Assembly (NCBI GenBank): GCA_964612595.1
Contig: CAZTFB010000002.1
Span: forward strand, 70,663-134,662
Origin: an uncultured Gammaproteobacteria bacterium
GTDB taxonomy: Bacteria; Patescibacteriota; Microgenomatia; UBA1406; HO2-37-13b
Direction of reading: 5' to 3'
Length of the DNA stretch: 64,000 nucleotides
The notes beneath the pieces were generated by a model. That model was not told where the DNA came from, did no database searches, and worked only from the letters and a program-made list of their open reading frames with translations. The position numbers and the translations under genes are program-made. Shown piece by piece: positions 6,823-46,222 of the stretch. Numbering within the stretch: position 1 is the stretch's first letter; every line of letters starts with the position of its first letter.

Positions 6823-6837
6823 GGTTGTATTATATCA
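6823..6837 (-). promoter_or_regulatory. extended -10 promoter TGATATAAT placed 6 nt before the ATG (leaderless-type start)
   Basis: The minus strand reads TGATATAAT-ACAACC-ATG. The same TGATATAAT-N6-start arrangement occurs at 25815-25829 and 46277-46291. Confidence 0.5.
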
Positions 6838-6875
6838 AGCCCGCGGCTTAATAAGGTCGTGTCCGCCGCCTAGAC
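6829..6875 (+). repeat. GC-rich intergenic element (variant of the 25829-25876 element)
   Basis: ATTATATCAAGCCCGCGGC is identical to 25821-25839, followed by AAGGTCGTGTC (6853-6863) and a GCGGC/GCCGC hairpin. Confidence 0.6.
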
Positions 6876-6915
6876 TTCACATAATTAGTTAATATTTTCC
6901 TTTTAAACTACCATT

Positions 6916-7503
6916 ATGGCCTCACGGTATGAGCGAAAATTGTTTCTGGCGCATTCAATATATCACGCATTTAGTCGAGGTGTAAACAAAGCCGATATCT
7001 TTCATTCTCCTGAGGACTATGACTTTTTTACGGAAAGTTTGATGTTGTATCTCCTACCAAAAGAGGAGCTCATTGAGCATCTCTATAAGCAAGGATATTC
7101 ACAGAAAAAAATTCTGCATTTATCATCGAAAGTTGCACACCTTAAAAATTACGCAAATGAAGTTTCCCTTATTGCTTACTGCTTAATGCCAAATCATTTT
7201 CACCTACTTCTTGAACAAGGGAAAAAAACGAGTATGACCAATTTCATGAAATCATTACTTATAAGGTATTCCATGTATTACTCACGCAAGTATGAACATA
7301 TTGGCCCACTCTTTCAAGGTCGGTACAAAGCTATTAATGTATTAAGTGAAACATACTTTCGCATTGTATTTAACTACATCCATGAAAATCCACGCAGTCT
7401 GCAGTCGTTTCACAATAATCCGCAAGACTATCCTTGGTCAAGTATGCGTGGCTATAACGGAGATAACGCGCAACAATCATGGATAAAGACACGATCCTTT
7501 TAA
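6916..7503 (+). CDS. IS200/IS605-type Y1 (HUH) transposase, RayT-like
   Basis: 195 aa. HUH motif in CLMPNHFHLLLEQ, and the C-terminal YIHENP motif typical of Y1_Tnp / REP-associated tyrosine transposases. Confidence 0.75.
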   Translation: MASRYERKLFLAHSIYHAFSRGVNKADIFHSPEDYDFFTESLMLYLLPKEELIEHLYKQGYSQKKILHLSSKVAHLKNYANEVSLIAYCLMPNHFHLLLEQGKKTSMTNFMKSLLIRYSMYYSRKYEHIGPLFQGRYKAINVLSETYFRIVFNYIHENPRSLQSFHNNPQDYPWSSMRGYNGDNAQQSWIKTRSF

Positions 7504-7515
7504 GCCACGGGCTTA
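7488..7515 (-). repeat. 28-nt intergenic element, copy 1 (TAAGCCCGTGGCTTAAAAGGATCGTGTC)
   Basis: 27/28 identical to 22450-22477 and 23/28 to 10980-11007. Starts with the TAA stop of the VirD4-like gene and overlaps the last codons of the transposase on the other strand. Confidence 0.8.
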
Positions 7516-9852
7516 GAGCCTCGAGCGTTGGATAGTTTCTGCCTCTACAAGCTCGCGGGGGCGGCCATACTTGAGGCGAGAAAGCTGGATAATCGCCTCT
7601 GCAATTTTCGGATTTGCCTGTTTAGTATATTCAACAATATCGCGCGTCATATCGATTGAAAATGGTGGTATAGGCTCATTGCGCACAATTGTTTTCATAT
7701 ACGCATGATACTTGTCGACGTTTATAAGGTCTGTCTCGCTAAATACTGGTTGGAATTCGCGTGAAATATATGATGCGTCGGTAACGCCAACGCGGAAACA
7801 GATGAGTGTACCGACGTTTCCAAAGACAGCGTTTTTTACTTCATCATCCATCTGGCCGATGAATTGATTCGCGACTGTAAGCCCCAAACGATATTTACGG
7901 GCCTCAGAAAGAATGACGGCGAAATCTGGTGTCGCAAAATTCTGAAACTCATCGACAAAAAGGAAAAAGTCCTTACGCTGCTCTTCTGGAATTTCTTGGC
8001 GCGACATAGCTGCCACAAGTATCTTTGGAATAATAACAAGTCCGAGGAAAGCGGAGTTTTCCTCCCCAAGCTTACCCTTACTCAAATTAATCAGGAGAAT
8101 TTTGCGCTCATCCATAACGTTTCTAAAGTTAAAGGACGACTCTGATTGACCAATGATATTGCGGATGACTGCATTCGTCACAAAACGGCCAAACTTAGAT
8201 ACGATGTAATCAAGTGTTTCTGATTTATGAAAATCGCTGGTCTGGGCAATCTGATCAGTCCAAAATCGACGAACAATTGGATCTGTAAGCTTTGGCAAAA
8301 GTTCCTGCACATATTTTGGATCGGTCAGGATACGTACCACTTCGATAAATGTAGTACCCTCATCAGCCATAACCGTCAACATAGCATTACGCACCGTATG
8401 CTCAAAACGAGGGCCAACGATACCTGTTCGCTGAGGATCGTAAAGTTTGTACATCAAATTAATGATCGCGGAGGTAATAAAATGCTTTTCCTGTTCTCCG
8501 CGAGCTTCTAATAGATTAAGTCCGATAGGGCGCTCCACATCGGCTGGATCAAAATAAATAACATCCTCCGCCCTATCTGCCGGTATATATTGGAGGATAC
8601 CCTCAACAAGATCACCGTGTGGATCAATCACACAAACGCCATGACCTGCTTTTATGTCTTGAATTGCCATATCTTTAAGCAATTCAGATTTACCAACACC
8701 CGTTTTTCCAATGATGTATAAATGGCGGCGGCGATCTTCCTGCAAAATATGTACTTGCCGCCGCACTCCTCTATAATGCCCGTAGCCCAAATATGTCCCG
8801 CCGTCTTCGGCGACCTCAGCCGCTACGGGCGCCGTTTTTGCCTTTAACCAATGAATAAATGGCGTCTCAACAGTCTTATTCGGAAGATGAAAAATAGTCG
8901 CCAACTCCTCCGAAGATAGAACTGATACCGATTTTGCAAAAGGGAGATCAATAACAGGAAAAAATTTATAGATAAAATTAACCATAAATCCGTACTTAAA
9001 GAGTATTTTTGCCGTACCAAAACTGTTTTGCTCCGAAGCAAACTGGTTAAATGCCGTCTTCATGTTTTTGACATGCATTTCGGCTAATTTTTTATCTTGA
9101 GCTGTTGCAACAAGTCGAATTGCCACATCATATCCAGGTTTTGAAAGTTTTTCACCTATCCGCTCCAAACCCTTTTGGTCAACACTAAACGTCGCTTTGT
9201 CTGGCGAAGCCTCTTTCTTCTTTGTTTTCGCCACATACGACTTTCCTGCCTCTTTATATTTAGATTCTGTGGTGCGCATTAAAACCTGAATAATTGCGCC
9301 TTCACCCTCACTTAGCTTAGATAGCGGTGAAGTCACAGCCGAAAGTGAATCGTAGGGAAGCTCCTTGTATGTTTTTATAGGTTCAAAATCATCATGCTTT
9401 AAGTGCAGCGCAGCATATGCAACATGCCCCTTCTCGCTAAAAATATGCTGTTCCTCTACAACAGCAATATCACACGCTGGATAAAACGCATATATTTGCT
9501 TCTCAACAAGATCCTTAAGTTTATTTGGCACCGTCACATAAAAAGCAATCTTCCCTGGCGTGCCAATAATTTCAAATCCAAGCGTATCTTCAATATCAAG
9601 AAATGACCAAAACCCGCTGTTTTTCAGCGAAGCAAACGAGGCGAACATCTGCTCGGCGGCATCGATTTTTAGCTCGTTATCCTTTGGCAGTCGAATCTCC
9701 ATCGTTACCGACTCTAGCGCGTGTTCTTCGCGCTTTTTCATCTTGATGAGCATAACGACCACATACAATACTGCCGCCGAAAATGCGAGCGCGACGACGA
9801 CTGCGATGAATATGACAAATGTAAGAATAAGGCTATCTACTATGCCTCCCAT
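7513..9852 (-). CDS. type IV secretion coupling-protein-like ATPase (VirD4/TraG/TraD family)
   Basis: 779 aa with an N-terminal TM helix, Walker A GKTGVGKSE, a Walker B-like FFLFVDEFQNF, and C-terminal TraD/TraG-type organisation. Confidence 0.7.
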   Translation of the reverse strand: MGGIVDSLILTFVIFIAVVVALAFSAAVLYVVVMLIKMKKREEHALESVTMEIRLPKDNELKIDAAEQMFASFASLKNSGFWSFLDIEDTLGFEIIGTPGKIAFYVTVPNKLKDLVEKQIYAFYPACDIAVVEEQHIFSEKGHVAYAALHLKHDDFEPIKTYKELPYDSLSAVTSPLSKLSEGEGAIIQVLMRTTESKYKEAGKSYVAKTKKKEASPDKATFSVDQKGLERIGEKLSKPGYDVAIRLVATAQDKKLAEMHVKNMKTAFNQFASEQNSFGTAKILFKYGFMVNFIYKFFPVIDLPFAKSVSVLSSEELATIFHLPNKTVETPFIHWLKAKTAPVAAEVAEDGGTYLGYGHYRGVRRQVHILQEDRRRHLYIIGKTGVGKSELLKDMAIQDIKAGHGVCVIDPHGDLVEGILQYIPADRAEDVIYFDPADVERPIGLNLLEARGEQEKHFITSAIINLMYKLYDPQRTGIVGPRFEHTVRNAMLTVMADEGTTFIEVVRILTDPKYVQELLPKLTDPIVRRFWTDQIAQTSDFHKSETLDYIVSKFGRFVTNAVIRNIIGQSESSFNFRNVMDERKILLINLSKGKLGEENSAFLGLVIIPKILVAAMSRQEIPEEQRKDFFLFVDEFQNFATPDFAVILSEARKYRLGLTVANQFIGQMDDEVKNAVFGNVGTLICFRVGVTDASYISREFQPVFSETDLINVDKYHAYMKTIVRNEPIPPFSIDMTRDIVEYTKQANPKIAEAIIQLSRLKYGRPRELVEAETIQRSRL

Positions 9853-9905
9853 GAGTTCAGTATACAGGAACGAGGAAATGAAGTATACTTATTTCCGCAC
9901 TAACT

Positions 9906-10325
9906 ATGAAGACTCTTGGACTGTCAATAACTGCTATTTTCCTCCTGTTGTTTTTGGTTATAAATGTCTATGCGTCTCAACTGTTTCCTCCACTTTACTA
10001 TCGCGTGGTTGGCATACAAGACATCTCAGCAGCTGAAGATTTCTTGCGCTACATAAAAGGAACTCCGATGCATAAACAGCAATATGATTATTTTAACGAG
10101 AAATTTAACAATGGGCTTATTGAGGCACGATTGGCTGAAGAAGAAAAAAATGGCGCTTCAAAAGAGAAATATCGCACCATTCTGGAGAAAAATCCAAAGA
10201 GCCGCGATGCGCTTATTATGCTCGCGCTGTACGAACTACGCGGTGGAAACGAAGAAGAAGCTGCTCGCTATTATACCCAAGCCAAGCAAATCGACCCCTG
10301 GCTTAAAATTGAATCGCTGGAATAG
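9906..10325 (+). CDS. small secreted/anchored TPR-like protein
   Basis: N-terminal hydrophobic signal/anchor. The C-terminal part (ALIMLALYELRGGNEEEAARYYTQAKQIDP) looks like a TPR repeat. Confidence 0.4.
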   Translation: MKTLGLSITAIFLLLFLVINVYASQLFPPLYYRVVGIQDISAAEDFLRYIKGTPMHKQQYDYFNEKFNNGLIEARLAEEEKNGASKEKYRTILEKNPKSRDALIMLALYELRGGNEEEAARYYTQAKQIDPWLKIESLE

Positions 10326-10354
10326 AAGACCACAACCTGTCGAGGATCGTGCCC
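10326..10354 (+). repeat. imperfect hairpin element AAGACCACAACCTGTCGAGGATCGTGCCC
   Basis: 24/29 identical to 45578-45606. Both start immediately after a TAG stop. The left arm matches the perfect terminator hairpin at 19982-20018. Confidence 0.7.
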
Positions 10355-10360
10355 TTGTTT

Positions 10361-10399
10361 AGAAGAAAAGATCGAAGCCGGGCGGTTGTGCCGCCCGGC
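10361..10399 (-). terminator. rho-independent terminator of cassette ORF 1a
   Basis: Minus strand reads GCCGGGCGG-CACAA-CCGCCCGGC followed by TTCGATCTTTTCTTCT. Confidence 0.7.
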
Positions 10400-10426
10400 C
10401 TCTCTCGTTCCGCCGAGGCGCGGGGC

Positions 10427-10693
10427 TCAGTCTTGCGTCTCCAGCATGGGGAGATTGAATATCGTGTCGGCCCGAAGTTCGTATCCCTTGGCCATCTTCA
10501 CGACAGCCTCCAGATTGTCCGTCTCCGTGACGACGACGATCGCTTCCTTGACCGAGCTCGCTGCGACCCGCACGACGCCTTGCAGGCGCTGTACGGCCTG
10601 AGCAAAGGGACCGAATCGTTCCGAGATGTTGTTGAGGTTGGTCCCGGTCTTCAGGACGATGACCACGAATGGCATCATGCTGATGTTCAACAT
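10427..10693 (-). CDS. GC-rich cassette ORF 1a, small alpha/beta protein of unknown function (weak GYD-like pattern)
   Basis: 88 aa with strong GC3 bias, its own promoter and terminator. The MPFVVIVLKTG... pattern only loosely recalls GYD-domain proteins. Confidence 0.5.
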   Translation of the reverse strand: MLNISMMPFVVIVLKTGTNLNNISERFGPFAQAVQRLQGVVRVAASSVKEAIVVVTETDNLEAVVKMAKGYELRADTIFNLPMLETQD

Positions 10694-10789
10694 AGCGATT
10701 TTACCTGTGCCTTTCGGTTGAAACGAGAATTGTTGGGTGCTTTGTCAATCGAGTAATGCGCGAAACACGCACACTTGAAAGACAGGATC

Positions 10790-10818
10790 ATTATACTATA
10801 GGATAGCAAGGAAGTCAA
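10790..10818 (-). promoter_or_regulatory. sigma70-type promoter TTGACT-N17-TATAAT for cassette ORF 1a
   Basis: -35 at 10818-10813, exact 17-nt spacer, -10 at 10795-10790. Begins 9 nt after the stop of the RNase H fragment. Confidence 0.65.
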
Positions 10819-10827
10819 GTTCTGAAG

Positions 10828-10974
10828 CTATTTTCGCATCAATTCCGCAATATCAACCGCATCATTCACCAGCGCATCCGCAAGCTTATTCTTCTCCCGC
10901 AGAACGTGTGTATAGCTTACCGGAAGGCCCAATTCTTTTTCATACACTCTGATTTGATTAACGTATTCCTGAAT
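10828..10974 (-). pseudogene. duplicated 3' fragment of the RNase H gene
   Basis: 10851-10974 is 122/124 identical to 11531-11654. The fragment stays in frame and ends with a different tail (..NDAVDIAELMRK*). It has no 5' part. Confidence 0.85.
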
Positions 10975-10979
10975 TGGAA

Positions 10980-11007
10980 TAAGCCCAGGTCTTAAAAAGG
11001 TCGTGCC
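10980..11007 (+). repeat. 28-nt intergenic element, copy 3 (TAAGCCCAGGTCTTAAAAAGGTCGTGCC)
   Basis: 23/28 identical to 22450-22477 (reverse complement). Preceded by TGGAATA, as is the element at 10326. Confidence 0.7.
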
Positions 11008-11031
11008 TTTTGTACTTGAAAGAGTTGTGCG

Positions 11032-11064
11032 GCAACCGGTCCAACATTACGTCGGACCGGTTGC
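11032..11064 (-). terminator. perfect 11-bp stem-loop downstream of cassette ORF 1b
   Basis: GCAACCGGTCC-N11-GGACCGGTTGC, with a second 7-bp hairpin (CAGCCTG..CAGGCTG) closer to the stop. The T-tract is weak. Confidence 0.4.
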
Positions 11065-11154
11065 ACGCGGGTGGATCAAGATTCACGATTTCTTTAACAG
11101 CCTGGGTCTCATCTCAGGCTGACACGAGATCGCCTTGACTGCGCTCCTGAGACA

Positions 11155-11427
11155 TCATTTGGCTTTGGCAAATGACACCAGAAACATGAGGGTTGTGATG
11201 AATGTTAGTGCTAAGTGCACCAACCACTCGAGACTTCTTACTCCATGATCGGGCACACTCATGACTGCCTTGACTTGCCAACACAAGACTGCCGCCAAAA
11301 AGTACTGATACGAAGGTCGCAATCTTTCGACATCTTCGCCAGATACCGAGAAAACACCAGACAGAATTGCCAACGCCAGGAACATAAGTTCCATGAGTGG
11401 CAATAGCCACAACAGCATCTCACTCAT
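11155..11427 (-). CDS. GC-rich cassette ORF 1b, small hydrophobic membrane protein
   Basis: 90 aa from ATG 11427 (MSEMLLWLLPLMELMF...), with AAGGGG 7 nt upstream and about 3 hydrophobic segments. No recognisable family. Confidence 0.5.
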   Translation of the reverse strand: MSEMLLWLLPLMELMFLALAILSGVFSVSGEDVERLRPSYQYFLAAVLCWQVKAVMSVPDHGVRSLEWLVHLALTFITTLMFLVSFAKAK

Positions 11428-11470
11428 TGTTTTTCCCCTTGTGTCAAGTGCGTACAGGATGTTGGGTGCA

Positions 11471-11499
11471 ATTATACTCTTAACAGTAGAACTGGTCAA
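11471..11499 (-). promoter_or_regulatory. sigma70-type promoter TTGACC-N17-TATAAT for cassette ORF 1b
   Basis: -35 at 11499-11494 contains the RNase H TGA stop codon. Exact 17-nt spacer, -10 at 11476-11471. Confidence 0.65.
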
Positions 11500-11939
11500 G
11501 CTCGCGCTGCTTCTTTGAATAAACTTCCTATATCAACCGCATCATTTACGAGCGCATCCGCAAGCTTATTCTTCTCCCGCAGAACGTGTGTATAGCTTAC
11601 CGGAAGGCCCAATTCTTTTTCATACACTCTGATTTGATTAACGTATTCCTGAATATGAGGCTGTTTTATTTTGTAGGCACCCTTTAACTGCTGTACAACC
11701 AAAAGCGAATCGGCGTGCCACTCGACTAGATCAATCGAATATTGTGGCACAAGCACGTTAATAAGCAGTTCATAGGCCTTCATAACGGCCCGATATTCCG
11801 CAGTATTGTTTGTTTCAATGCCAATATCTTCGCGGTGCGCAAACAAGACCTGGTCTTGTTCATCATAAAACACAATGCCGATCGCGGCGGGCCCTGGATT
11901 TCCCTTTGAACCCCCATCTGTAAAAACTTTAAGTTTCAT
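11496..11939 (-). CDS. rnhA: ribonuclease HI-like protein
   Basis: 147 aa with type 1 RNase H acidic motifs: FTDGGSKGNPG, NNTAEYRA, HADSLLVV, KNKLADALVNDA. Confidence 0.75.
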   Translation of the reverse strand: MKLKVFTDGGSKGNPGPAAIGIVFYDEQDQVLFAHREDIGIETNNTAEYRAVMKAYELLINVLVPQYSIDLVEWHADSLLVVQQLKGAYKIKQPHIQEYVNQIRVYEKELGLPVSYTHVLREKNKLADALVNDAVDIGSLFKEAARA

Positions 11940-11944
11940 AAGGG

Positions 11945-12661
11945 TTAATTATAACGAGATGTTAATCTTTTAGTAACAAAGAATGCGAAGCCGTACCAGA
12001 GGCACCCAAAGCCATATTTTAGGCTTCGCAAAAAATTTATAGACGACATTTCGGGAAAATAGCGACATGGTGAGCTTATCTCCCCGATTCGATTTCCTGA
12101 GGCAAGAAGTTGAAGCAGCATTTGATTATCAAAAATAAAATCGTCGCTATTCACTTTATACTTTACGCTCTTGAGAGCCTTTCTCGTATAGGCACGAAAA
12201 CCTGTATGATATTCTGACAACTTCGCACCTGTCAGAATATTCTCAATAAAAGTTAGCACTCGATTTGAAATATATTTGTATAACGGCATACCGCCTCGCA
12301 GAGCCCCACCGGACAGAATGCGTGATCCAAGGACCACATCAAAATGCCCCGTCTGAAGCATTGCCACCATTGGCGTAATGAGCTCAGACGGATACTGATA
12401 ATCGGGATGAAGCATCACAACGATATCGGCGCCAGCCTTTAGTGCCGCGTCATAACACGTTTTTTGATTGGCGCCATATCCTTTATTCTTGTCATGCTGA
12501 ATAACGGTCAAGCCAAGCGCTGTAGCTATCTTTACCGATTCATCTGTACTACCATCATCGGTCATAATAATGTGTTTTTTGAATTGGCTTGGAATATCTT
12601 TGTAAGTTTTACGGATAGTCTTGGCTGTGTTGTATGCCGGCATTATTATGATGGTTTTCAT
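11945..12661 (-). CDS. glycosyltransferase family 2
   Basis: IIIMPAYNTAKTI ... DDGSTDES ... HPDYQYP motifs of GT-A fold GT2 enzymes. Confidence 0.8.
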   Translation of the reverse strand: MKTIIIMPAYNTAKTIRKTYKDIPSQFKKHIIMTDDGSTDESVKIATALGLTVIQHDKNKGYGANQKTCYDAALKAGADIVVMLHPDYQYPSELITPMVAMLQTGHFDVVLGSRILSGGALRGGMPLYKYISNRVLTFIENILTGAKLSEYHTGFRAYTRKALKSVKYKVNSDDFIFDNQMLLQLLASGNRIGEISSPCRYFPEMSSINFLRSLKYGFGCLWYGFAFFVTKRLTSRYN

Positions 12662-12662
12662 G

Positions 12663-13895
12663 TTATGGCAGTATATATTGGTAAAACGCTATTGCCCCTA
12701 ATAGGTTCACTATCATACCATACCCAATAGTACCGTAAAAAAGGCTCTTTGGAACATATGGTAGCAAAATAACAAGATGAATAAATACGAGCGGCATAAG
12801 ATCAAAAAAGTATCTGTTACCAAACTGAACCCATCCTGTTGCGTAAAACAAGAGCAGAAACGCCATAAGCCCTAGGCTCGTGCTTAATAACAGTAAATAT
12901 AAAAATCGCTGGTACTTTTTCATGCGTTTGTAGATGCTTTTAAACAATAAGGGGATTGCTAAAACGAGCAATGTATAAGGATAAACAAAAAAAATACTGT
13001 TCCCTTCGGGATTGATGTTTATGTAGGGTTTCTGTGAGGAAAATTGAAGTGGTTCAAGAAAATAATACCTAATATTGTGCTCGATGTACTCTGATGAAAG
13101 TATTTTATTTTGAGCTACTGCCGACATAAAGCGCTCGTTGCCTTTGTGATATCGATAGCCAACCTCAAATACATTACCAAAGCGTACGTAATTGTAGGTA
13201 AAGTAGGTTGTTGCGAACACTCCACATACCAGAATACTGGCAAGCAAAAGCCTTTTTACGGACTTTTTTCGCATGTATGCTTGCATGATGGGAAACACAA
13301 GAATAATGCCATAAAGCCCCAAATTGAGTCTTGTAAGACATGCAAGATTGAAAAATACTAGAGCACCAACAAATGATCTTATTGACGACGTACGAATATA
13401 GTGAAACAAAAAGATGAGGTAGCTTAGGATATATGTTATAGAAATAACTTGATTCGTATGCCAGACGCGACCGTTTAGTGAAAGATAAAGGTTGGGAGAG
13501 GCACATATGAAGGCTACGAGCAAAGCTATGAGCGCGTTCTGTGTAAGTTTTATGCGAAAATGTCGCGCCACCTCAGATAAGAGCGCGTACATCAGTACTG
13601 TATTGAGCGATCCTGCGAAAAGTGTGTAAAAAACGTCGCTCGATATGCCGAGCAACTTGAAGGGTAGAATGAAAAAAACCGGTGCAAAGCCCCAATACAT
13701 GTATGTTTTGTCGTCAAACAACGATAAATCGTATATTTTTTCGGTTAGAAGATTGGTTCTTCCGTCCAAGAAAGCGTCTGCAAGCAGACTATAGTATGAT
13801 GTCGGCGTGTTGAGGAAAATACTGCCGTAGAGAAAATAAGTGATGAGGCTATAAATGATGAAGGTGAGCGCAAAAATAGCGAAATATCTTTTCAC
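12663..13895 (-). CDS. polytopic membrane protein, GT-C-like glycosyltransferase candidate
   Basis: 410 aa, almost entirely hydrophobic helices, translationally coupled to the GT2 gene. GTG start. Confidence 0.45.
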   Translation of the reverse strand: MKRYFAIFALTFIIYSLITYFLYGSIFLNTPTSYYSLLADAFLDGRTNLLTEKIYDLSLFDDKTYMYWGFAPVFFILPFKLLGISSDVFYTLFAGSLNTVLMYALLSEVARHFRIKLTQNALIALLVAFICASPNLYLSLNGRVWHTNQVISITYILSYLIFLFHYIRTSSIRSFVGALVFFNLACLTRLNLGLYGIILVFPIMQAYMRKKSVKRLLLASILVCGVFATTYFTYNYVRFGNVFEVGYRYHKGNERFMSAVAQNKILSSEYIEHNIRYYFLEPLQFSSQKPYININPEGNSIFFVYPYTLLVLAIPLLFKSIYKRMKKYQRFLYLLLLSTSLGLMAFLLLFYATGWVQFGNRYFFDLMPLVFIHLVILLPYVPKSLFYGTIGYGMIVNLLGAIAFYQYILP

Positions 13896-13920
13896 TCTAC
13901 AATGATATCACAAGAGATGA

Positions 13921-13949
13921 GGCACGAACCTGACAGGACCTGGTCCTGC
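13921..13949 (-). repeat. hairpin element GCAGGACCAGGTCCTGTCAGGTTCGTGCC
   Basis: Lies 3 nt after the recombinase stop. Its 3' half CCTGTCAGGTTCGTGCC parallels CCTGTCGAGGATCGTGCC at 10336-10353. Confidence 0.6.
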
Positions 13950-13952
13950 AAT

Positions 13953-14859: not shown

Positions 14860-15198
14860 ATGTTTAGACTTATTAAAGATTCCATTCTCCTCATACTGTT
14901 GGTTGTTCTTGTTGCGTCGCTCTCGAGGAACATCTTTCTGTATAAAGACAAGTTGTCATTTTACCACGATTATAGAAAAGAATACGAGAAAGAGAGGGAT
15001 CTTAATAAACGACTTAAGAGCGACATAAAGAAAAGTGAGGATTATTATTACGTGGAAAAGGAAATTCGAGAGAAGTTGAACTTATTGCAGCCGGGCGAAA
15101 CGGCGCTGATTATTCCTGAGGTTACGCTGACTCCCGAGCCTACACCATCAGCTCCGAAGAAACCTTACGAACTGTGGTGGGAGCTCTATACACAATAA
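14860..15198 (+). CDS. septum formation initiator (FtsB/DivIC-like)
   Basis: 112 aa with an N-terminal TM helix, a coiled-coil segment and the ..EKEIREKLNLLQPGE motif typical of the family. Confidence 0.6.
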   Translation: MFRLIKDSILLILLVVLVASLSRNIFLYKDKLSFYHDYRKEYEKERDLNKRLKSDIKKSEDYYYVEKEIREKLNLLQPGETALIIPEVTLTPEPTPSAPKKPYELWWELYTQ

Positions 15199-15370
15199 GA
15201 CCGTGTCTTGTTCTGCATCATGCCGAGCGGTATTCAACACTACCTCACATATTCTGTGCTTCCCTTCATTATTGTCATTGGTAGTTTGTTAACCTTCAGT
15301 AAGACCAATTGACCCTATCGTAAATGAAACATAGCGCAGATATACAAACGGGGCTGCAGGAATAAGTTTT

Positions 15371-22440: not shown

Positions 22441-22449
22441 TAACTCATT

Positions 22450-22477
22450 GACACGATCTTTTTAAGCCACGGGCTTA
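22450..22477 (-). repeat. 28-nt intergenic element, copy 2 (TAAGCCCGTGGCTTAAAAAGATCGTGTC)
   Basis: 27/28 identical to 7488-7515. Starts with the TAA stop of the 215-aa pilin-like gene. Confidence 0.8.
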
Positions 22478-23122
22478 CTGTATGCCAGGTAGGCCGAGGC
22501 TTCGAGAGATGAACTGGATGATGAATACAGAGAACAGTGCGAATAACAAACCTACGATTGAGCCTATTAATATCCTTCTCCCTTGATTGAGTCTTCCCGC
22601 ATCTGAGCGCGATGTTGCAATAACCGCAGTACCATAGATAAAGCTTAAGAATGCAATACCGCCGATAATGGAGAAGAAAAAGCTCGACATTTGGGCTGTA
22701 AATTCTCCCGGTTGTGTCGATAGACAACCAAACCCGGTATAGTAATGGTTTGGGTCTGGTGTTGGGATAAGTCCCGCTTCGTTTGTCAGTGTTCCCAGAG
22801 CAGTTGGATCTACATCTGCACCCTCTATACCAACAACTTCTGGATATAAACAGCGCACACATGCTTGCCAACTTCCTGGAACCTTCGTGACGCCCTGACA
22901 ATACCCACATAAATCACAGTTAGCAATGCTCTTATGTGGCTCGTCTGTGGGAAGGGGCGCTCCTAGCCCTGGGGTCGGTGTTGCCGCTGTTGAAAAAGGA
23001 GTTGGGGTTGCGGGCACAGCAGTTGGGGGTATTCCTTGCGCAAAAGCAGAGGATATCAAGCCGAGATGTGAGGTACAGATGACAAAGAAATAGATACTAA
23101 TGATGACTTTGCGCAGACTCAT
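22475..23122 (-). CDS. Cys-rich pilin-like protein (VirB2/TrbC-like C-terminal topology)
   Basis: 215 aa: signal peptide, Pro/Thr-rich linker, a CDLCGYCQ...CVRC cysteine cluster, and a C-terminal TM, charged loop, TM module. Confidence 0.45.
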   Translation of the reverse strand: MSLRKVIISIYFFVICTSHLGLISSAFAQGIPPTAVPATPTPFSTAATPTPGLGAPLPTDEPHKSIANCDLCGYCQGVTKVPGSWQACVRCLYPEVVGIEGADVDPTALGTLTNEAGLIPTPDPNHYYTGFGCLSTQPGEFTAQMSSFFFSIIGGIAFLSFIYGTAVIATSRSDAGRLNQGRRILIGSIVGLLFALFSVFIIQFISRSLGLPGIQ

Positions 23123-28043: not shown

Positions 28044-28054
28044 TCCTGCTGTGC

Positions 28055-28083
28055 TTGACTACGCTATTAATATAGCCTATAAT
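28055..28083 (+). promoter_or_regulatory. sigma70-type promoter TTGACT-N17-TATAAT for cassette ORF 2
   Basis: Begins 12 nt after the clpB stop. Followed by AAGGAGG and ATG 28124. Confidence 0.65.
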
Positions 28084-28123
28084 ATTACCTTCACCGACCC
28101 TGTTCTAGCCCAAGGAGGCAAGG

Positions 28124-28507
28124 ATGAGCAGCTCAAAGCCGGTACCGATCTTGGTCTTGCGCCAGGTCAGAATCGTGACCTGGCTGTCCGGAAGTACTGA
28201 GCCCAGGAGGGCTCGGGTCGAAGGCCATGCTGATGAACTTCTCGAGCTCCTGGGGCAATCCAATGATGAGCTCGGGAGCACCTCAGCGCTCGTGGTGCAG
28301 GTGTCGGCACATGTTGTGCGAGTTTTACTGCATGACGGCTCACCAGTTGCCCGGTTCTCGGTCGATACCGAGCAAGCCGGCGCGACAATCGTCTTCGTCG
28401 ACAGCAAGGGATGGCTCCAGAGCCTTCTTGCCATCGGCGCGGAATCGATCAACCCCGAGGACTGGCCAAACAGCTGGGTTCGGACGGCCTTCAAGGCCGA
28501 AGACTGA
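28124..28507 (+). CDS. GC-rich cassette ORF 2, unknown function
   Basis: 127 aa with AAGGAGG 5 nt upstream and strong GC3 bias in this frame. The opposite-strand ORFs look like GC-rich artefacts. No recognisable family. Confidence 0.55.
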   Translation: MSSSKPVPILVLRQVRIVTWLSGSTEPRRARVEGHADELLELLGQSNDELGSTSALVVQVSAHVVRVLLHDGSPVARFSVDTEQAGATIVFVDSKGWLQSLLAIGAESINPEDWPNSWVRTAFKAED

Positions 28508-28525
28508 CGACCTCAAGTCGTCCAT

Positions 28526-28565
28526 GGCCCCGGTCCGCTTCGGCGGATGCGGGGCCTTTCTCATT
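28526..28565 (+). terminator. rho-independent terminator of cassette ORF 2
   Basis: GGCCCCG-G-TCCGC-TTCG-GCGGA-TG-CGGGGCC followed by TTTCTCATT. Confidence 0.75.
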
Positions 28566-28604
28566 CCCCAAAAATTCCTCTTTACCTCCTAAAAACCTGC
28601 TATA

Positions 28605-40781: not shown

Positions 40782-42050
40782 ATGAAATACTTTGTAAAAA
40801 CTTTTGGATGCCAACAGAATGTTGCTGATTCTGAACGTGTGGAGGCGCGCCTGCAGGCGCGCGGAATGACACCTGCGTCTTCGTACGAAGACGCAGATCA
40901 GATTGTCATCAACACGTGTATGGTACGCGAGTCTGCAGAAAACCGCGTCTATGGTTTGGTTGATAATCTAAGCAAACTGAAAGAGAAAAAACCAACACTC
41001 AAGATTGTGGTGACAGGCTGTATGGTTGGTGTGGCATTTCGTGACAAAACCGGCAAGGTGTTAAAAAAAATCAAAAAAGCCATGCCTGCTGTCGATGAGT
41101 TTATGCCTATCGAAGAGGTGGGATTTGATTTCGCACCTGTGCGTACGAGCAAGACTGCTGCGTGGGTTCCTATCTCAAATGGGTGCAATAATTTTTGCAC
41201 CTTTTGTATTGTGCCCTTTACGCGCGGGAGGGAAGTTTCCCGCCCATATGAAGATATAATTGAAGAGTGCAAAGAACTTAGAAAAGATGGGTACAAAGAA
41301 GTTACGCTTCTTGGACAAAACGTAAATTCATACGGTGCTGATCTTATCGTTGGAGAAAAGAATATTCAAGTGATGCGCGATCTCCCCGATAAGACATATT
41401 TCGATGAGAAGGCCGTGGAGCCCCAGACACGATCTAAAAAAGCCACGGGCTTCTCGGTCAATGGTCGTACCATAGAACCAGTATATGTAAAACATCTTGG
41501 TAGATTACGTATTCCAACTCTTTTCCCCCATCTTCTCGATGAGATCGCGCAGATGGGATTCGAGCGTGTGGATTTTGTATCCTCAAACCCATGGGATTTT
41601 TCTGATGAAGTTATTGAGGTAATGGCACGTAACCCAAACATAACACGCGTCCTCCACCTCCCCCTTCAACATGGAGATAACAATGTTCTCAAGCGCATGA
41701 ATCGTTGGTATACTCGTGAGGAATATATGACAATCATCGATAAAATACGTTCAAAAATCCCCGATATGAAATTCACAACCGACATCATTGTTGGGTTTTG
41801 CGGAGAAACACCTGAAGAGTTCGAAAGTACCGTCGATATATGTAAAAAAGTGGGTTTTTATAAAGCATATGTCGCTATGTATTCACAAAGACCTATGACT
41901 GCGGCAACAAAAATAATGGCTGATGATGTGCCGCATGCAGAAAAAAAGCGCCGATGGCAGGTCTTAGAAAAGCTTATCAACAAGCCCCACCTCGAGTCCT
42001 TTGGAGAGGAACAATACCATATGCACAAAAAAACAAGCTATGCACATTGA
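40782..42050 (+). CDS. miaB: tRNA methylthiotransferase MiaB-like (radical SAM)
   Basis: N-terminal TFGCQQNVADSE, the radical-SAM CNNFCTFC cluster, and the MTTase domain order. Confidence 0.8.
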   Translation: MKYFVKTFGCQQNVADSERVEARLQARGMTPASSYEDADQIVINTCMVRESAENRVYGLVDNLSKLKEKKPTLKIVVTGCMVGVAFRDKTGKVLKKIKKAMPAVDEFMPIEEVGFDFAPVRTSKTAAWVPISNGCNNFCTFCIVPFTRGREVSRPYEDIIEECKELRKDGYKEVTLLGQNVNSYGADLIVGEKNIQVMRDLPDKTYFDEKAVEPQTRSKKATGFSVNGRTIEPVYVKHLGRLRIPTLFPHLLDEIAQMGFERVDFVSSNPWDFSDEVIEVMARNPNITRVLHLPLQHGDNNVLKRMNRWYTREEYMTIIDKIRSKIPDMKFTTDIIVGFCGETPEEFESTVDICKKVGFYKAYVAMYSQRPMTAATKIMADDVPHAEKKRRWQVLEKLINKPHLESFGEEQYHMHKKTSYAH

Positions 42051-44464: not shown

Positions 44465-45577
44465 ATGAACAGAGACTTTCCTGTAAAACTAGCTCTCATT
44501 TCTGTATTGCTCTTTGAATTATTTCTGCTGTTTGGTAATCCGGTTAAAGCTCAGGTTGTATGTTCAAATAGGGATGATTGCCAGAATAAAATAAAAGAGT
44601 ATGAGTCAAAGCTCAGCGCCACGCGAGAAGCTAAAGGAAATTTAACCTCACAAATTCAGCTCACAAACACCAAGGTTGAGCTTGCACAAGTACGCATACA
44701 AAAAACCCAACACGATATTGAGGCAACTCAGAATGAAATTGCCCAATTAACTGGAAAGATTGAGCAGCTCAACACCACACTAGATCATTTGAGCGAAATT
44801 CTGCTGCAAAAAATTGTCGAAGGGTATAAAAACAAGGAAGCGAGCATTCTCGATATTCTGCTCTCCCCAGAGGCATCAACCCTCACAAATCAACTCAAAT
44901 ATATCCAGATAGCTCAAGAAAACGATCGTCTTCTTGCACTTCGTACTCAACAAGTAAAAGTAAATTTCTCTGAACAAAAAACGCTTCGCGAAGATAAAAA
45001 GGTTGATCTTGAAAAGCTCGAGAAAGATTTAGAGGCACAGAGAGTAGAGTTGAAGAACCAGATTGCTCAAAAAAACGCGCTTCTTGAGCAAACAAAGAGT
45101 GACGAAAAAAAATACCAACAATTGTTGAGTCAGGCATTGGCAGAATTTCAGGCGGTAAACAAAGCTATTGAGACAGGACAAAAAGTGGGTGAGGTTAAAA
45201 AGGGTGATCCAATAGCACTGATTGGCAATACAGGATATCCTCATTGCTCAACTGGAGCACACCTGCATCTTGAGGTGCGCAAGGGTGGCACATGGACAGA
45301 TCCAGGCGCATATTTGGGAAGCAGTTGGGATTGGCCAATTAGTCAACCTATTGAAATTACACAGGGGTATGGAGTGACGCCATGGTCATGGCGTTACTCA
45401 TATAGCGGAGGCATACATACAGGGTACGATATGGTGAGTAGGAGCAGTGAGGTGATACGTGCAGTAGCTGACGGCACCCTCTACTCATCCTCGCAGAATT
45501 GTAGCGGCTCGATCATAAAGATTAAATACATTGACCACGGGAACGACCTCATGAGCTTCTATCTGCATGTGCAATAG
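44465..45577 (+). CDS. M23-family peptidoglycan endopeptidase with N-terminal coiled coil
   Basis: Signal peptide, about 230 aa of coiled coil, and the GNTGYPHCSTGAHLHLEV M23 motif. Confidence 0.8.
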   Translation: MNRDFPVKLALISVLLFELFLLFGNPVKAQVVCSNRDDCQNKIKEYESKLSATREAKGNLTSQIQLTNTKVELAQVRIQKTQHDIEATQNEIAQLTGKIEQLNTTLDHLSEILLQKIVEGYKNKEASILDILLSPEASTLTNQLKYIQIAQENDRLLALRTQQVKVNFSEQKTLREDKKVDLEKLEKDLEAQRVELKNQIAQKNALLEQTKSDEKKYQQLLSQALAEFQAVNKAIETGQKVGEVKKGDPIALIGNTGYPHCSTGAHLHLEVRKGGTWTDPGAYLGSSWDWPISQPIEITQGYGVTPWSWRYSYSGGIHTGYDMVSRSSEVIRAVADGTLYSSSQNCSGSIIKIKYIDHGNDLMSFYLHVQ

Positions 45578-45606
45578 AAGACCGCAACCTCACGAGGTTC
45601 GTGGCC
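45578..45606 (+). repeat. imperfect hairpin element AAGACCGCAACCTCACGAGGTTCGTGGCC
   Basis: 24/29 identical to 10326-10354. Begins right after the TAG stop of the M23 gene. Confidence 0.7.
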
Positions 45607-45699
45607 TAATGAGAATGCGCCCTTCGATTATGAGCCGTAGCCCACAATCTCCAGGCGCTTATCCTCGCACAGGCAAGAGCTCAGGCCTCGACCGTCATG

Positions 45700-45972
45700 T
45701 CAGAATCCGCCAAGAATGAGCGTGTCGGGCATCGGCCCCCTGCAGACCCGTTGGGTCGTGAACGTTGCCTTAACCCACCCTCGGCCCGGATACTCCACGA
45801 GGATAGAGCATTCGCCGTTCGCTTCTTTTTGGAAGCATTGCGAGTAGAACCGCTCAAAGTCTTCGTTGCCGTTTGGGTCGCTAATCGTCACGTCGACCAG
45901 GCCACCATTGGGCCCGCTGGACCACCAAACGTTTCCAGCACGACAGACAAACGGATTCGACCGTGTGTACAT
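45700..45972 (-). CDS. GC-rich cassette ORF 3, unknown function
   Basis: 90 aa with GGAGG 6 nt upstream, its own promoter, and 4 Cys. No recognisable family. The plus-strand ORF 45697-46071 is judged an artefact. Confidence 0.5.
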   Translation of the reverse strand: MYTRSNPFVCRAGNVWWSSGPNGGLVDVTISDPNGNEDFERFYSQCFQKEANGECSILVEYPGRGWVKATFTTQRVCRGPMPDTLILGGF

Positions 45973-46035
45973 CGAACTACCTCCATCACGAGCTCGCCGG
46001 ATGCGAAAAAAGTGCGCGTATGCACTTTGGTGCGA

Positions 46036-46064
46036 ATTATACTACCAGAGAGCTCTGAGATCAA
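46036..46064 (-). promoter_or_regulatory. sigma70-type promoter TTGATC-N17-TATAAT for cassette ORF 3
   Basis: -35 at 46064-46059, exact 17-nt spacer, -10 at 46041-46036. Lies 85 nt downstream of the tRNA-Ala 3' end. Confidence 0.6.
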
Positions 46065-46148
46065 TTTCTAGGCTGGGCAAGGGTCTGAAAAAAGTTAAAT
46101 CGTGTTTGGATTTGTGAGACGCTCTATATTACCCCCGAGGTTGTTGTG

Positions 46149-46222
46149 TGGACCGGAGGGGACTTGAACCCCTGACCCCCGCACTGCCAGCGCGATGCTC
46201 TAGCCAACTGAGCTACCGGCCC
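46149..46222 (-). tRNA. tRNA-Ala (anticodon GGC)
   Basis: Hand-folded: acceptor GGGCCGG/CCGGTCC with the G3:U70 alanine identity pair, D arm GCTC/GAGC, anticodon loop CTGGCAG, T arm AGGGG-TTCAAGT-CCCCT. No encoded CCA. Confidence 0.85.

Follow-up and report, generated by a model that had tools for sequence, protein, structure and literature searches.

A hypervariable RNase HI–TPR spacer in a Microgenomates bacterium and the probable stacking of two of its cassette alleles

The topology described in this study, and the mechanism that we favor here, have been proposed for arrays of orphan modules at T6SS, Rhs and CDI loci (PMC5361080). Here, we analyzed a 64,000-nt stretch of DNA (the window) from a Microgenomates (candidate phyla radiation, CPR) bacterium, in which small GC-rich genes with their own promoters occupy the spacer that separates the convergent RNase H and TPR genes. 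As in the orphan module arrays, an incoming module would find its anchor in homology to the conserved upstream gene and would supply, along with its cargo, its own 3′ end of that gene; the resident 3′ end would be displaced downstream with its cargo as a stub that keeps a conserved piece (here 10828-10974), and the contents vary between close strains. The spacer differs from these arrays in that the upstream gene is a housekeeping RNase HI with a tail of 7-11 codons outside the catalytic domain, each cassette has its own promoter, and only one stub was seen, in one genome. In addition, the cargo matched no toxin/immunity or defence family in Pfam and NCBIfam and consists of orphan proteins.

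Other known systems are close as well. Elements that integrate at the 3′ ends of tRNA, tmRNA and protein genes also leave direct 3′-end repeats and an intact gene with an element-supplied end, but the spacer has no integrase, the unit is only 680 bp, its right end is the allelic end of the neighboring gene, and the relatives lack att-like boundary repeats. In integron arrays, as in the spacer, one chromosomal site close to a tyrosine recombinase gene holds small single-ORF cassettes whose number and order vary; in contrast, every cassette here has its own strong promoter and terminator, there is no attC-type site at each cassette end, and the Xer-like recombinase falls far under the integron-integrase cut-off (52 vs 265 bits). 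Phage morons, described by Hendrix and colleagues, are promoter–ORF–terminator units of deviant base composition. The cassettes resemble them as autonomous transcription units with their own promoter and terminator and a GC content unlike that of the surroundings, but their context is chromosomal, with no phage genes and no phage or plasmid similarity. In the replacement-type flexible genomic islands of Rodriguez-Valera and colleagues, unrelated content at one position is exchanged via the flanks; the spacer likewise carries unrelated genes at one chromosomal position in close strains with conserved flanks, on a scale of 0.5-1.2 kb and 1-2 mini-genes, unlike the multi-gene glycosylation and surface clusters of those islands.

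Layout of the tandem

The features of the locus are as follows, with positions in the window.

9906-10325, plus strand: TPR gene, convergent, 139 aa, which anchors the locus on the right (ORF list, Pfam)
10321-10357, minus strand: REP-like repeat of subtype I, abutting and overlapping the TPR stop codon (nhmmer E 4e-10)
10374-10402, minus strand: unit 1 intrinsic terminator, 12-bp stem with 10 GC pairs and a T-run (terminator search)
10427-10693, minus strand: unit 1 cargo, 88-aa soluble protein (ORF list)
10694-10789, minus strand: unit 1 leader, 5′ UTR type A (alignment)
10790-10818, minus strand: unit 1 promoter, TTGACTTC-N8-CCTATAGTATAAT (promoter search, alignments)
10828-10974, minus strand: probable displaced native RNase H 3′ end, a 125-nt repeat copy (10850-10974) plus a tail ending in AELMRK and a TAG stop
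10975-10982, plus strand: TGGAATAA, Leu-Glu-stop (TAA), putative remnant of a foreign TPR allele (sequence read; TPR ends compared)
10977-11010, minus strand: REP-like repeat of subtype II, CACGAYC-TTTTT-AAGNC-NNN-GNCTT (nhmmer E 4e-9; regex scan)
11029-11067, minus strand: unit 2 3′ module, terminator-like, with a long GC-rich hairpin and then GCCGCACA (inverted repeat)
11155-11427, minus strand: unit 2 cargo, 90-aa hydrophobic ORF of the small membrane protein type (ORF list)
11471-11499, minus strand: unit 2 promoter, TTGACC-17-TATAAT, whose first hexamer holds the RNase H TGA stop
11496-11939, minus strand: intact RNase HI gene, 147 aa (Pfam RNase_H/RVT_3 over residues 3-134; NCBIfam RNase HI families)
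11530-11654, minus strand: repeat copy inside the intact RNase H gene (repeat search, alignment)

A repeat search of the window found one direct repeat of 125 nt (10850-10974 and 11530-11654; 123/125 or 98% identical, spacing 680), whose length is given below as 124 or 125 nt. In BLAST the similarity of the two copies reaches 162 nt at 90% and runs into the promoter, and no similarity was detectable between the interiors of units 1 and 2. A promoter stands at an equal offset after each repeat copy, followed by an unrelated GC-rich ORF of about 90 aa and by hairpins. Both promoters match the sigma-70 consensus at 11/12 positions (TTGACC-17-TATAAT, 11499-11471; TTGACT-17-TATAAT, 10818-10790). 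Since the RNase H ORF ends at 11496 and the hexamer starts at 11499, the TGA stop lies within the first promoter hexamer. The GC content within the units is 0.50-0.63, compared to about 0.41 for the window. Thus, the repeat searches, BLAST, ORFs and promoter matches bear out the first-pass annotation of this DNA, which had described the same layout twice in tandem (repeat, promoter, ORF, hairpins), unrelated interiors and a -35 hexamer holding the RNase H stop. No integrase, attC or phage/plasmid link was found for the units, phage and plasmid records contained nothing similar to the cassettes, and neither unit ORF has a Pfam or NCBIfam domain; the units contain no recombinase.

The two RNase H ends differ. 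In the intact gene the final 11 codons (GSLFKEAARA and the stop) are non-native, so that it ends in DIGSLFKEAARA, and this tail has no similarity to the native tail in alignment. The partial copy is in frame and ends in DIAELMRK. Because the RNase H ends in relatives (AELMRK, PELLRK, EKLLQK, AELLRN) resemble that of the partial copy, the native tail is the one found there and not the one on the intact gene. Relatives also align via the partial copy into the promoter, and on the intact copy the alignment ends at 11530. The variable tails are 7-11 residues long and lie outside the RNase H domain. In the intact gene the repeat copy has two differences (C and A at repeat positions 105 and 108), which are the alleles of two related contigs, L001 and L118. 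These comparisons support the earlier claim that the incoming unit brought its own RNase H 3′ tail. Of the two in-frame tails that had been noticed, both are real, but the one taken for the alternative is, judging from the relatives, the native one.

The 88-aa unit 1 protein is predicted by AlphaFold2 (pLDDT 85) to adopt a ferredoxin-like beta-alpha-beta-beta-alpha-beta fold, and structure comparison gave nothing beyond generic fold matches. Its family comprises only 7 clusters in 5.8 billion proteins, and all members whose context was read lie at the RNase H–TPR locus; the family is lineage-restricted. The 90-aa unit 2 ORF has no family match in Pfam or NCBIfam. ORFs alike in size and hydrophobicity occur at the locus in L001, L002, L003 and L053, with 14-18% identity to it. 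The unit 2 ORF itself was found only in the window's own record, and therefore a single-unit donor of its allele (allele A below) was not seen.

The spacer in related contigs

Comparison of the TPR/RNase H region across relatives, which the first-pass annotation had proposed, revealed a hypervariable locus in ten related contigs. The order Xer–GT2–RNase H–cassettes–TPR–TrwB-like is kept, with the TPR gene syntenic in all relatives, and the cassette content differs in every relative; the contents between RNase H and TPR differ in five relatives with 78-80% flank identity and in one strain with 98.6%. One or two cassettes occupy the spacer, and their order varies; they encode a small membrane protein, a small soluble protein of ferredoxin-like type, or both. 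The membrane cassette precedes the soluble cassette in L003, L053 and the window, and the order is reversed in L001; L119 has the soluble cassette first and its contig ends in the following promoter. The membrane cassette alone is present in L002, and the soluble cassette alone in L114 and L117. Every cassette has its own near-consensus promoter, and the consensus of the unit 1 promoter is common to the locus cassettes in all relatives. L003 and L053 thus have the two ORF types in the order of the window, which goes half way towards the condition that the first-pass annotation had named as refuting its reading (relatives with both ORFs in this order and no variation), but the ORFs themselves vary to an extreme degree (14-37% amino-acid identity).

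Near-identical strains carry different alleles, which bears on the horizontal sharing of modules, and allele A was found nowhere else. L114 is 98.6% identical to the window over TPR and the TrwB-like gene and 97% over the RNase H 3′ end and promoter, and its cassette interior has no match to the window. Since the last 8 TPR codons of L114 and the window differ only synonymously, a crossover is placed inside TPR. Unit 1 and the second cassette of L053 are about 90% identical in promoter and leader and about 92% in terminator and REP, with ORFs of about 50% nucleotide and 14% amino-acid identity, which indicates that the locus is mosaic. The earlier proposal of a cassette-exchange locus is thus borne out by the variable contents of the relatives, and of the two options it had offered, unequal recombination between two alleles fits better than serial insertion.

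An RNase H fragment between cassettes occurs only in the window among the compared contigs; BLAST and inspection of the sequences found none at the internal boundary of the two-cassette relatives L001, L003 and L053. This bears on the possibility that unit 2 is a miniature integrative cassette moved by a trans-acting site-specific recombinase, with the 124-nt repeats as attL and attR; the enzyme would be an unseen integrase or the Xer-like tyrosine recombinase encoded 2.3 kb upstream. Such a cassette would account for an insert bracketed by direct repeats of a gene 3′ end with the reading frame restored and the gene intact. All relatives share the synteny of the locus with an Xer-family recombinase gene, and a 6-nt inverted repeat around a spacer of 6 nt (TATTCC-AATTCA-GGAATA) arises at the junction. 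The missing fragments in the relatives argue against it, as do the lack of a recombinase in the unit, the absence of the GGAATA half-site from RNase H of L001 and L003, and a right end that is an allelic TPR-proximal module including TPR codons, which is unexpected for an attP-bearing element. In addition, the Xer-like gene is syntenic whatever the cassette content, and its product scores best against XerC/XerD (152 bits), well above its integron-integrase score, and looks like a housekeeping chromosome-dimer resolvase. We therefore consider an integrative cassette very unlikely. The analogy to integrative elements drawn in the first-pass annotation fails on the lack of a recombinase in the units, on the missing fragments in the two-cassette relatives and on a join with neither a shared core nor microhomology.

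The join and the origin of the tandem

The join lies between 10975 and 10974, with no shared core and no microhomology. TGGAATAG at 10318-10325 is the Leu-Glu-stop of the TPR gene, and TGGAATAA at 10975-10982 is the same three codons with a TAA stop, as in other TPR alleles; the compared TPR ends are CTGGAATAG in the window, CTAGAATAA in L003 and L114, and GAAAGATAA in L117. TGGAATA, which had been read as a unit end, is therefore the last TPR codons (TGGAATA followed by A or G). Aligned with the TPR-proximal module of L117, the right end of unit 2 (long hairpin, GCCGCACA, REP subtype II and TAA) is in register. Its 3′ module is allelic to those of L117, L002 and L003 in alignment, and the copy closest to its REP element is L117 615-642, which adjoins the L117 TPR stop. 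At both of its ends unit 2 carries an allelic version of the respective end of the locus, and, judging from these alignments, it is probably an entire foreign spacer allele that starts in RNase H and includes 8 nt of its TPR gene.

The hairpin elements at the two right ends, 10321-10357 and 10977-11010, are two subtypes of a dispersed REP-like repeat and are not specific to the units. In nhmmer and regex scans at least 9 copies were found in the window (0.04 expected by chance), at the 3′ ends of genes and on many stop codons. Copies also follow genes without cassettes, including Xer, DivIC and TrwB-like, and at the locus the element is found only beside TPR or at the unit 2 end, not behind each cassette. 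Thus, the conserved right ends previously taken for cassette ends are a repeat that follows many unrelated genes, together with the TPR stop region. The consensus is CACGAYC-T-rich-AAGNC-NNN-GNCTT, with a 5-bp palindrome and no GT(A/G)G head. A gene flanked by two such copies lies nearby:

6833-7518, plus strand: RAYT-like Y1 transposase gene (6916-7503) with two flanking REP-like copies (Pfam, NCBIfam, nhmmer)

The two copies (6833-6865, minus; 7484-7518, plus) are inverted and both read outward. The product scores 41.8 bits with Pfam Y1_Tnp (cut-off 23) and 44.6 bits (E 1.3e-11) with NCBIfam REP_Tyr_transpos, below the cut-off of 80. The arrangement resembles the described REP/RAYT systems (PMC2817692) in its short hairpin repeat dispersed in extragenic 3′ regions and in a single Y1-transposase gene between two inverted copies, one overlapping the stop, but differs in its CACGA head, its short palindrome, a protein under the NCBIfam RAYT cut-off and its Microgenomates host. 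This likeness accounts for the right-end elements only, not for the tandem. IS200/IS605-type enzymes cut at fixed distances from hairpins and produce circular single-stranded intermediates (PMC6006769). A RAYT-like HUH transposase might accordingly have cut single-stranded DNA a few nt 3′ of the REP-like hairpin and religated it to RNase H, making the unit a REP-bounded cargo element: the join lies 6 nt past the hairpin AAGAC-CTG-GGCTT, the gene with inverted REP-like flanks is 3.5 kb away, and REP-like copies abut cassettes at two loci. This is highly improbable, given that the copies stand on one cassette side only and also after many genes without a cassette, that a third cassette (28045-28590) has no REP copy, that no hairpin on the RNase H side of the join is a counterpart to the TPR-side repeat, and that no conserved cleavage motif is common to the join and the other copies. 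An IS200/IS605-type element or PATE, which would have subterminal hairpins at its two ends and insert 3′ of a fixed tetra- or pentanucleotide, differs likewise, the hairpin repeat here being at the TPR-side end only.

We propose, with a probability of about 0.6, that the spacer is a swap-prone hypervariable locus in which two alleles were stacked by one homologous exchange and one illegitimate join; this stacking would most likely be a chance product of ordinary recombination and not the work of a novel type of mobile element. We take as shown the anatomy of the tandem, the allelic character of both unit 2 ends and the variability of the locus, whereas the sequence of events and the enzymes behind it are our inference. 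The spacer would be a recombination-prone locus of the Microgenomates lineage holding one or two self-contained expression cassettes. In each of them, a strong promoter is followed by a leader whose 5′ hairpin is conserved, by a GC-rich ORF encoding about 90-130 aa and, as terminator, by a long hairpin rich in GC; a REP-like repeat lies on the TPR stop codon. Whole spacer alleles would be swapped among strains via homologous recombination anchored in the 3′ ends of both flanking genes. Allele A would comprise the non-native RNase H tail, the membrane-protein cassette with its own terminator, REP subtype II and the last 8 nt of TPR. One illegitimate (non-homologous) junction would have joined it to base 1 of the 124-nt RNase H stretch, and it would have entered a resident allele-B chromosome through homologous exchange within that stretch. 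This may have been a Campbell-type integration of a circularized allele A fragment or, as an equal option, an unequal or homology-facilitated illegitimate exchange between A-type and B-type chromosomes. Homology-facilitated illegitimate recombination typically uses 3-10 nt of microhomology, and the lack of any at the join is unusual for that route and counts against it. RNase H would thereby have stayed intact with the allele A tail, and the native 3′ end with the soluble-protein cassette would have been pushed 680 nt downstream as a stub. Since foreign-type sequence reaches to within 8 nt of the junction, the junction would have formed on the incoming allele and not by duplication followed by replacement.

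The head-to-tail layout, the nearly identical 124-nt left end and the equal offset of the promoter hexamers would also be expected from an ordinary tandem duplication of the whole spacer with later divergence or replacement of one interior. Yet the interiors are unrelated although the repeat differs at only 2/125 positions, the two SNPs are alleles of other strains, and REP subtype II and TAA of foreign type extend to within 8 nt of the join, which leaves no right-hand homology for a later replacement. This reading is close to refuted, in agreement with the argument of the first-pass annotation against simple duplication; 162 nt align at the left end and the interiors do not.

The tandem order is read from an assembled contig, and a chromosome with a 680-bp circle, or a minority variant, would also fit it. 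It is possible but unlikely that the tandem is an assembly artefact or mixed population, in which single-unit strains A and B, or unit 2 as a small circle, formed a graph loop that was threaded once. The genome is metagenome-assembled and the locus varies by strain. The Logan contigs come from five samples and match the window at 100% where they were compared (L050, L051). Every one of them breaks off within the repeat, at 10974 (its base 1), 10900 or 10939, and in the same five samples the other cassette locus is assembled unbroken. L050-L052 continue from the repeat into tail B and lack the second branch that equally abundant copies should give, and the tandem form may be a minority in these samples. 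The unit 2 ORF was not seen in Logan contigs, but the look-up index is incomplete and misses P0002's own NCBI contig, so negative look-ups carry no weight. In contrast, L050 has its first base precisely on base 1 of the repeat, and the end of L126 coincides with 10900, where the first 31-mer with the copy-specific SNP lies; these independent assemblies support a repeat that is real in the reads. Two single-unit strains cannot give rise to the junction of GGGCTTATTCCA with ATTCAGGAATACG: no k-mer is common to the parents at this point, so by de Bruijn or overlap assembly logic junction-spanning reads must exist. Moreover, if unit 2 were a circle with 124 nt in common with the chromosome, it would integrate by exactly the mechanism that we propose. 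With two 124-nt repeats, RecA-dependent loss of unit 2 is predicted, and one-unit variants are therefore expected in the population.

Implications for CPR genomes

CPR bacteria have very small genomes with few recognised mobile elements. It is conceivable, though quite unlikely, that the spacer and at least two other spots in the genome are capture sites for lineage-specific tiny self-promoted genes that move between strains and loci, movement that could be aided by the REP-like repeat and the RAYT-like HUH enzyme. If so, an ultra-small symbiotic bacterium would have an integron-like function without an integrase or attC, and the membrane and ferredoxin-like proteins, which evolve fast, would serve interactions with hosts or phages that are specific to each strain. 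Both cargo types are GC-rich, hyper-divergent orphans behind strong promoters, and they are candidates for strain-specific roles in interaction or defence. If confirmed genome-wide, the REP/RAYT-like system would extend this association to Microgenomates. Current views are not overturned, the recombination mechanism being of a known kind. The stacked form provides a precise read-level target, with one junction and two 124-nt repeats expected to recombine. Taken together, the locus offers a concrete route for gene-content change between near-identical CPR strains, in which sub-kilobase cassette alleles would be exchanged via the 3′ ends of two housekeeping genes and occasionally stacked.

Tandem layout at the RNase H end and evidence for the join

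The first-pass annotation had described two tandem units on the minus strand between the RNase H gene and the convergent TPR gene, each with a repeat, a promoter, an ORF and a hairpin, and this layout was confirmed. The features are as follows:

11496-11939, RNase H ORF
11530-11654 and 10850-10974, the sole long direct repeat (125 nt, 98%, spacing 680)
11499-11471, minus, unit 2 promoter, TTGACC-17-TATAAT
11155-11427, minus, unit 2 ORF (ORF90), 90 aa, hydrophobic
10818-10790, minus, unit 1 promoter, TTGACT-17-TATAAT
10427-10693, minus, unit 1 ORF (ORF88), 88 aa; a strong terminator also lies in this unit
10969-10986, inverted repeat at the join; junction 25-mer, GGGCTTATTCCAATTCAGGAATACG

The direct repeat came from a repeat search, and by BLAST its similarity stretches to 162 nt at 90%. 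Both copies are followed, at an identical offset, by a promoter that matches the sigma-70 consensus at 11 of 12 positions, and the RNase H TGA lies inside the first hexamer of the unit 2 promoter, as had been noticed. The interiors of the units, which had been called unrelated, gave no alignment with each other by BLAST, and an inverted-repeat search also found a 14-bp hairpin in unit 2. The GC content of the units is 0.50-0.63 vs about 0.41 for the window. An Rfam scan of 9800-12200 (E ≤ 1) matched no family, so the GC-rich stretches there are not a known structured RNA. The join itself yields a perfect inverted repeat of 6 nt around a spacer of equal length, TATTCC-AATTCA-GGAATA; as a recombinase core this palindrome was rejected, because the GGAATA half-site is not conserved in two related contigs, L001 and L003. 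A palindrome resembling the hairpin of the REP-like repeat described below, AAGAC-CAG-GTCTT, occurs in the RNase H coding sequence at 11847-11859, 190 nt upstream of the repeat.

The structure is real and non-random. The parental sequences have no k-mer in common at the join, so that two single-unit strains could not have given it in any assembler, and we infer that junction-spanning reads must exist. For five runs of a single project, the Logan assemblies have contigs that cover unit 1, TPR and beyond, and the two that were compared with the window (L050 and L051) are 100% identical to it. All of the contigs end inside the repeat: one at 10974 (repeat base 1), three at 10939, and one at 10900, which is repeat base 75, the first 31-mer with the copy-specific SNP at base 105. 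In the same runs, another cassette locus was recovered in unbroken contigs of 3.9-14 kb. The breaks fit a genuine two-copy repeat, and a chromosomal tandem, a chromosome plus a 680-bp circle and a minority variant are all compatible with them. L050-L052 run from the repeat into tail B, the native RNase H end, without a branch, which hints that one-unit genomes may dominate in these samples. Contigs of several samples, including those of a different strain (L114, L115), begin at the same base, the equivalent of window position 10939, which would fit a polymorphic site, at 10940, that co-occurring strains have in common.

The RNase H-TPR spacer in relatives

A protein search with RNase H found three genomes at 85-87% identity, namely Microgenomates bacterium OLB23 and two labelled "uncultured Gammaproteobacteria" (one a 938-kb chromosome), together with two metagenome contigs. 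The gene order common to all relatives is Xer-like recombinase, GT2 glycosyltransferase, RNase H, variable spacer, convergent TPR and TrwB/VirD4-like gene. In the window, a gene for a 410-aa multi-pass membrane protein without a Pfam match (12663-13895, minus) lies between the Xer-like and GT2 genes, with a REP-like copy (13918-13952) at its boundary; it is missing in all relatives, where GT2 directly follows Xer.

Each relative carries one or two cassettes of the same architecture throughout: behind a promoter TTGAC(TTC/AAA)-N8-CCTATAGTATAAT comes a leader (about 85-105 nt), then a GC-rich ORF for 88-130 aa, and finally a long GC-rich hairpin. The cargo is of two recurring types, both small proteins, one a membrane protein and the other soluble, whose arrangement varies.

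Cassette cargo at the locus in the window and in related contigs (L003 is from OZ246401.1)
L003, L053, window: membrane, then soluble
L001: soluble, then membrane
L119: soluble; the next promoter is cut by the contig end
L002: membrane only
L114-116, L117: soluble only

Between loci with 78-100% identity in their flanks, members of the soluble family are only 14-37% identical. The contig L114 matches the window at 98.6% over 1.7 kb of TPR and TrwB-like sequence and at 97% over the RNase H end and promoter, yet despite these near-identical flanks its cassette has no match whatever with the window. The last eight TPR codons of L114 encode the same residues as those of the window with different codons, which places an exchange breakpoint inside TPR. 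When unit 1 is compared with cassette 2 of L053, the promoter and leader are about 90% identical and the terminator and downstream repeat about 92%, with the ORF at about 50%. The RNase H-TPR locus is a mosaic.

A second leader type is common to the soluble-ORF cassette of L003 and the membrane-ORF cassette of L001. The leader hairpin, GUUUCUGU-CCGCGCG-loop-CGUGCG-AU-ACAGGAAC, begins about 16 nt after the −10 box and shows compensatory changes in 5 of its 14 pairs. It is shared by these leaders:

L003, 5880-5965
L001, 5923-6007
L114, 151-235
L117, 166-255
L118, 2588-2671
L002, 5461-5563

One leader type stands before unrelated ORFs, and the non-coding flanks are conserved better than the coding regions.

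Among the relatives compared by BLAST, an RNase H fragment between cassettes is found in the window alone. The internal cassette boundaries of the relatives (..tttcCA|GCCTCAGA) may also contain TPR remnants, although the same T-rich motif is found in the spacer after terminators.

Origin of unit 2 and a dispersed REP-like repeat

By its sequence, the whole of unit 2 is a foreign spacer allele (allele A, with the resident type as allele B). Two positions distinguish the repeat copy of the intact gene from its counterpart, and at both the variant is one that L001 and L118 carry in their RNase H alleles. Past GATAT, the RNase H tail of unit 2 (tail A) has no similarity to the well-conserved native tail (..GCGGAATTGATGCGAAAATAG), and its distance to the −35 box is the same as that of the native one. 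The tails of relatives (AELMRK, PELLRK, EKLLQK, AELLRN) match the type in the partial copy, and it is therefore the partial copy that holds the native RNase H end. The alternative tails are not part of the catalytic core, as the RNase H domain reaches only to residue 134 of 147. At the other end of unit 2, an in-register alignment with the TPR-proximal module of L117 takes in the hairpin, the GCCGCACA motif, the T-rich spacer and a subtype II repeat. The final 8 nt, TGGAATAA, encode Leu-Glu-stop with TAA as in L003 and L114, vs TAG in the window. Foreign-type sequence therefore reaches to within 8 nt of the join, so the join of the TPR end to RNase H (the equivalent of 11654) was made on the incoming allele, which excludes duplication followed by replacement.

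Of the readings proposed in the first-pass annotation, that of two alleles of a cassette-exchange locus holds. The simplest route would need a single illegitimate join and a single homologous exchange. A fragment of allele A ending 8 nt inside TPR would have been circularised onto base 1 of the RNase H repeat and integrated Campbell-style through the homology of about 124 nt; alternatively, unequal exchange at that join would have occurred between A-type and B-type chromosomes. The product would be an intact RNase H with the tail of allele A, and the native end would be displaced with its cassette. [quoted passage not shown] The annotation had also likened the units to integrative elements that target gene 3′ ends. 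This analogy does not hold. Three observations count against a site-specific route: there is no recombinase within the unit, the internal boundaries of relatives have no RNase H stub, and the Xer-like gene scores as XerC/XerD and not as an integron integrase.

The conserved right ends had been taken as specific to the units. They proved to be copies of a REP-like repeat dispersed in the window, together with the region around the TPR stop; at 10318-10325, TGGAATAG encodes Leu-Glu-stop of TPR. A window scan with the pattern of the unit 1 element found a close copy at 45578-45606 (chance expectation 0.04), and a looser pattern scan with an nhmmer profile brought the number of copies to at least nine:

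6833-6865
7484-7518
10321-10357
10977-11010
13918-13952
15192-15224
22447-22480
41424-41456
45573-45609

Eight of the nine have E between 1e-5 and 1e-11; the copy at 15192-15224 is weaker (E 0.0015-0.006) and sits, like the others, on a stop codon (that of DivIC). The stop codons of TPR, M23 peptidase, DivIC, Xer and TrwB-like genes lie directly under copies. The repeat is about 30 nt long, with subtype I being GGSCACGAWCCT-N4-AGGTTRYGGTCTT and subtype II GACACGAYC-TTTTT-AAGCC-ACG-GGCTT. Two outward-reading copies (span 6833-7518) flank a Y1-transposase gene (6916-7503, 195 aa), in which the repeat itself supplies the stop and the five codons before it. The protein matches Pfam Y1_Tnp above the cut-off, and its best NCBIfam match is "REP-associated tyrosine transposase" (RAYT; E 1e-11, below the cut-off). 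An outward-reading repeat pair flanking a transposase gene is the defining REP/RAYT arrangement (PMC2817692). The inverted flanking copies are present here, whereas the GT(A/G)G head of REP is absent; the arrangement resembles a REP/RAYT system, here in a member of the Microgenomates and without the usual head. A role of such a RAYT-like enzyme in the join is possible but unsupported: the join lies 6 nt from a REP-like hairpin, but the repeats stand on one side only and also follow many cassette-free genes.

Cargo proteins and further cassettes

Among 5.8 billion proteins, the soluble family forms only seven clusters at 90% identity, and all members whose context was read are at the RNase H-TPR locus. 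An AlphaFold2 model from the family alignment gave a confident beta-alpha-beta-beta-alpha-beta fold (pLDDT 85). Foldseek returned only generic ferredoxin-like matches (S6, HMA, ACT; TM about 0.6), from which no function follows. The membrane ORFs are alike in size and hydrophobicity, with an identity of merely 14-18%. Pfam, NCBIfam and PADLOC searches with the four cassette ORFs found nothing and no link to defence, and searches of phage and plasmid DNA gave no match. Residues 10-42 of ORF88 recall the LysM consensus VxxGxNLxxISxR[FY]xxxxAA[VI]QRxxG. A LysM assignment was rejected, because the phmmer matches span these residues only and are inflated by 3-9 repeats per target, the motif is absent from other family members, and Pfam LysM does not match ORF88; the resemblance is probably fortuitous.

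The promoter pattern TTGAC-N12-CCTATAGTATAAT occurs exactly in four IMG/VR viral contigs (L120-L123, three near-identical and one related), where a leader hairpin follows it ahead of a phage gene. Only the promoter consensus is common with the cassettes, and the match probably reflects the promoter of the lineage and not the cassette; these contigs may be phages of this lineage with the same promoter consensus.

Two further cassettes were found in the window:

45573-46140, minus, second cassette, same build, downstream of tRNA-Ala (46148-46222)
46036-46064, its promoter, ..TTGATC-N15-GTAGTATAAT, followed by a leader hairpin
45700-45972, minus, its ORF, a 90-aa Cys-rich orphan, GC 0.58
28045-28590, plus, third cassette, GC 0.53, between ClpB-like and thioredoxin genes, with a CTTGACT..TATAAT promoter and a GC-rich terminator
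28124-28507, its ORF, a 127-aa orphan

The second cassette ends in a subtype I REP-like copy that overlaps with the convergent M23-peptidase gene at its stop codon, and the third has no REP-like copy. Measured between the M23 end and the hydrolase gene, the second cassette locus is 715 nt long in five of six Logan samples; the sixth contig stops before the hydrolase gene.

The high GC content of the cassettes could, speculatively, come from foreign origin or from gene conversion with a GC bias, at a hot spot of recombination. The mechanism belongs to a known kind, and there is modest novelty in the locus, in its cargo and in a REP/RAYT-like repeat among the Microgenomates. The strong promoters, the stabilising hairpins on the 5′ side and the extreme divergence between near-identical strains would be in keeping with factors for strain-specific interaction or exclusion.
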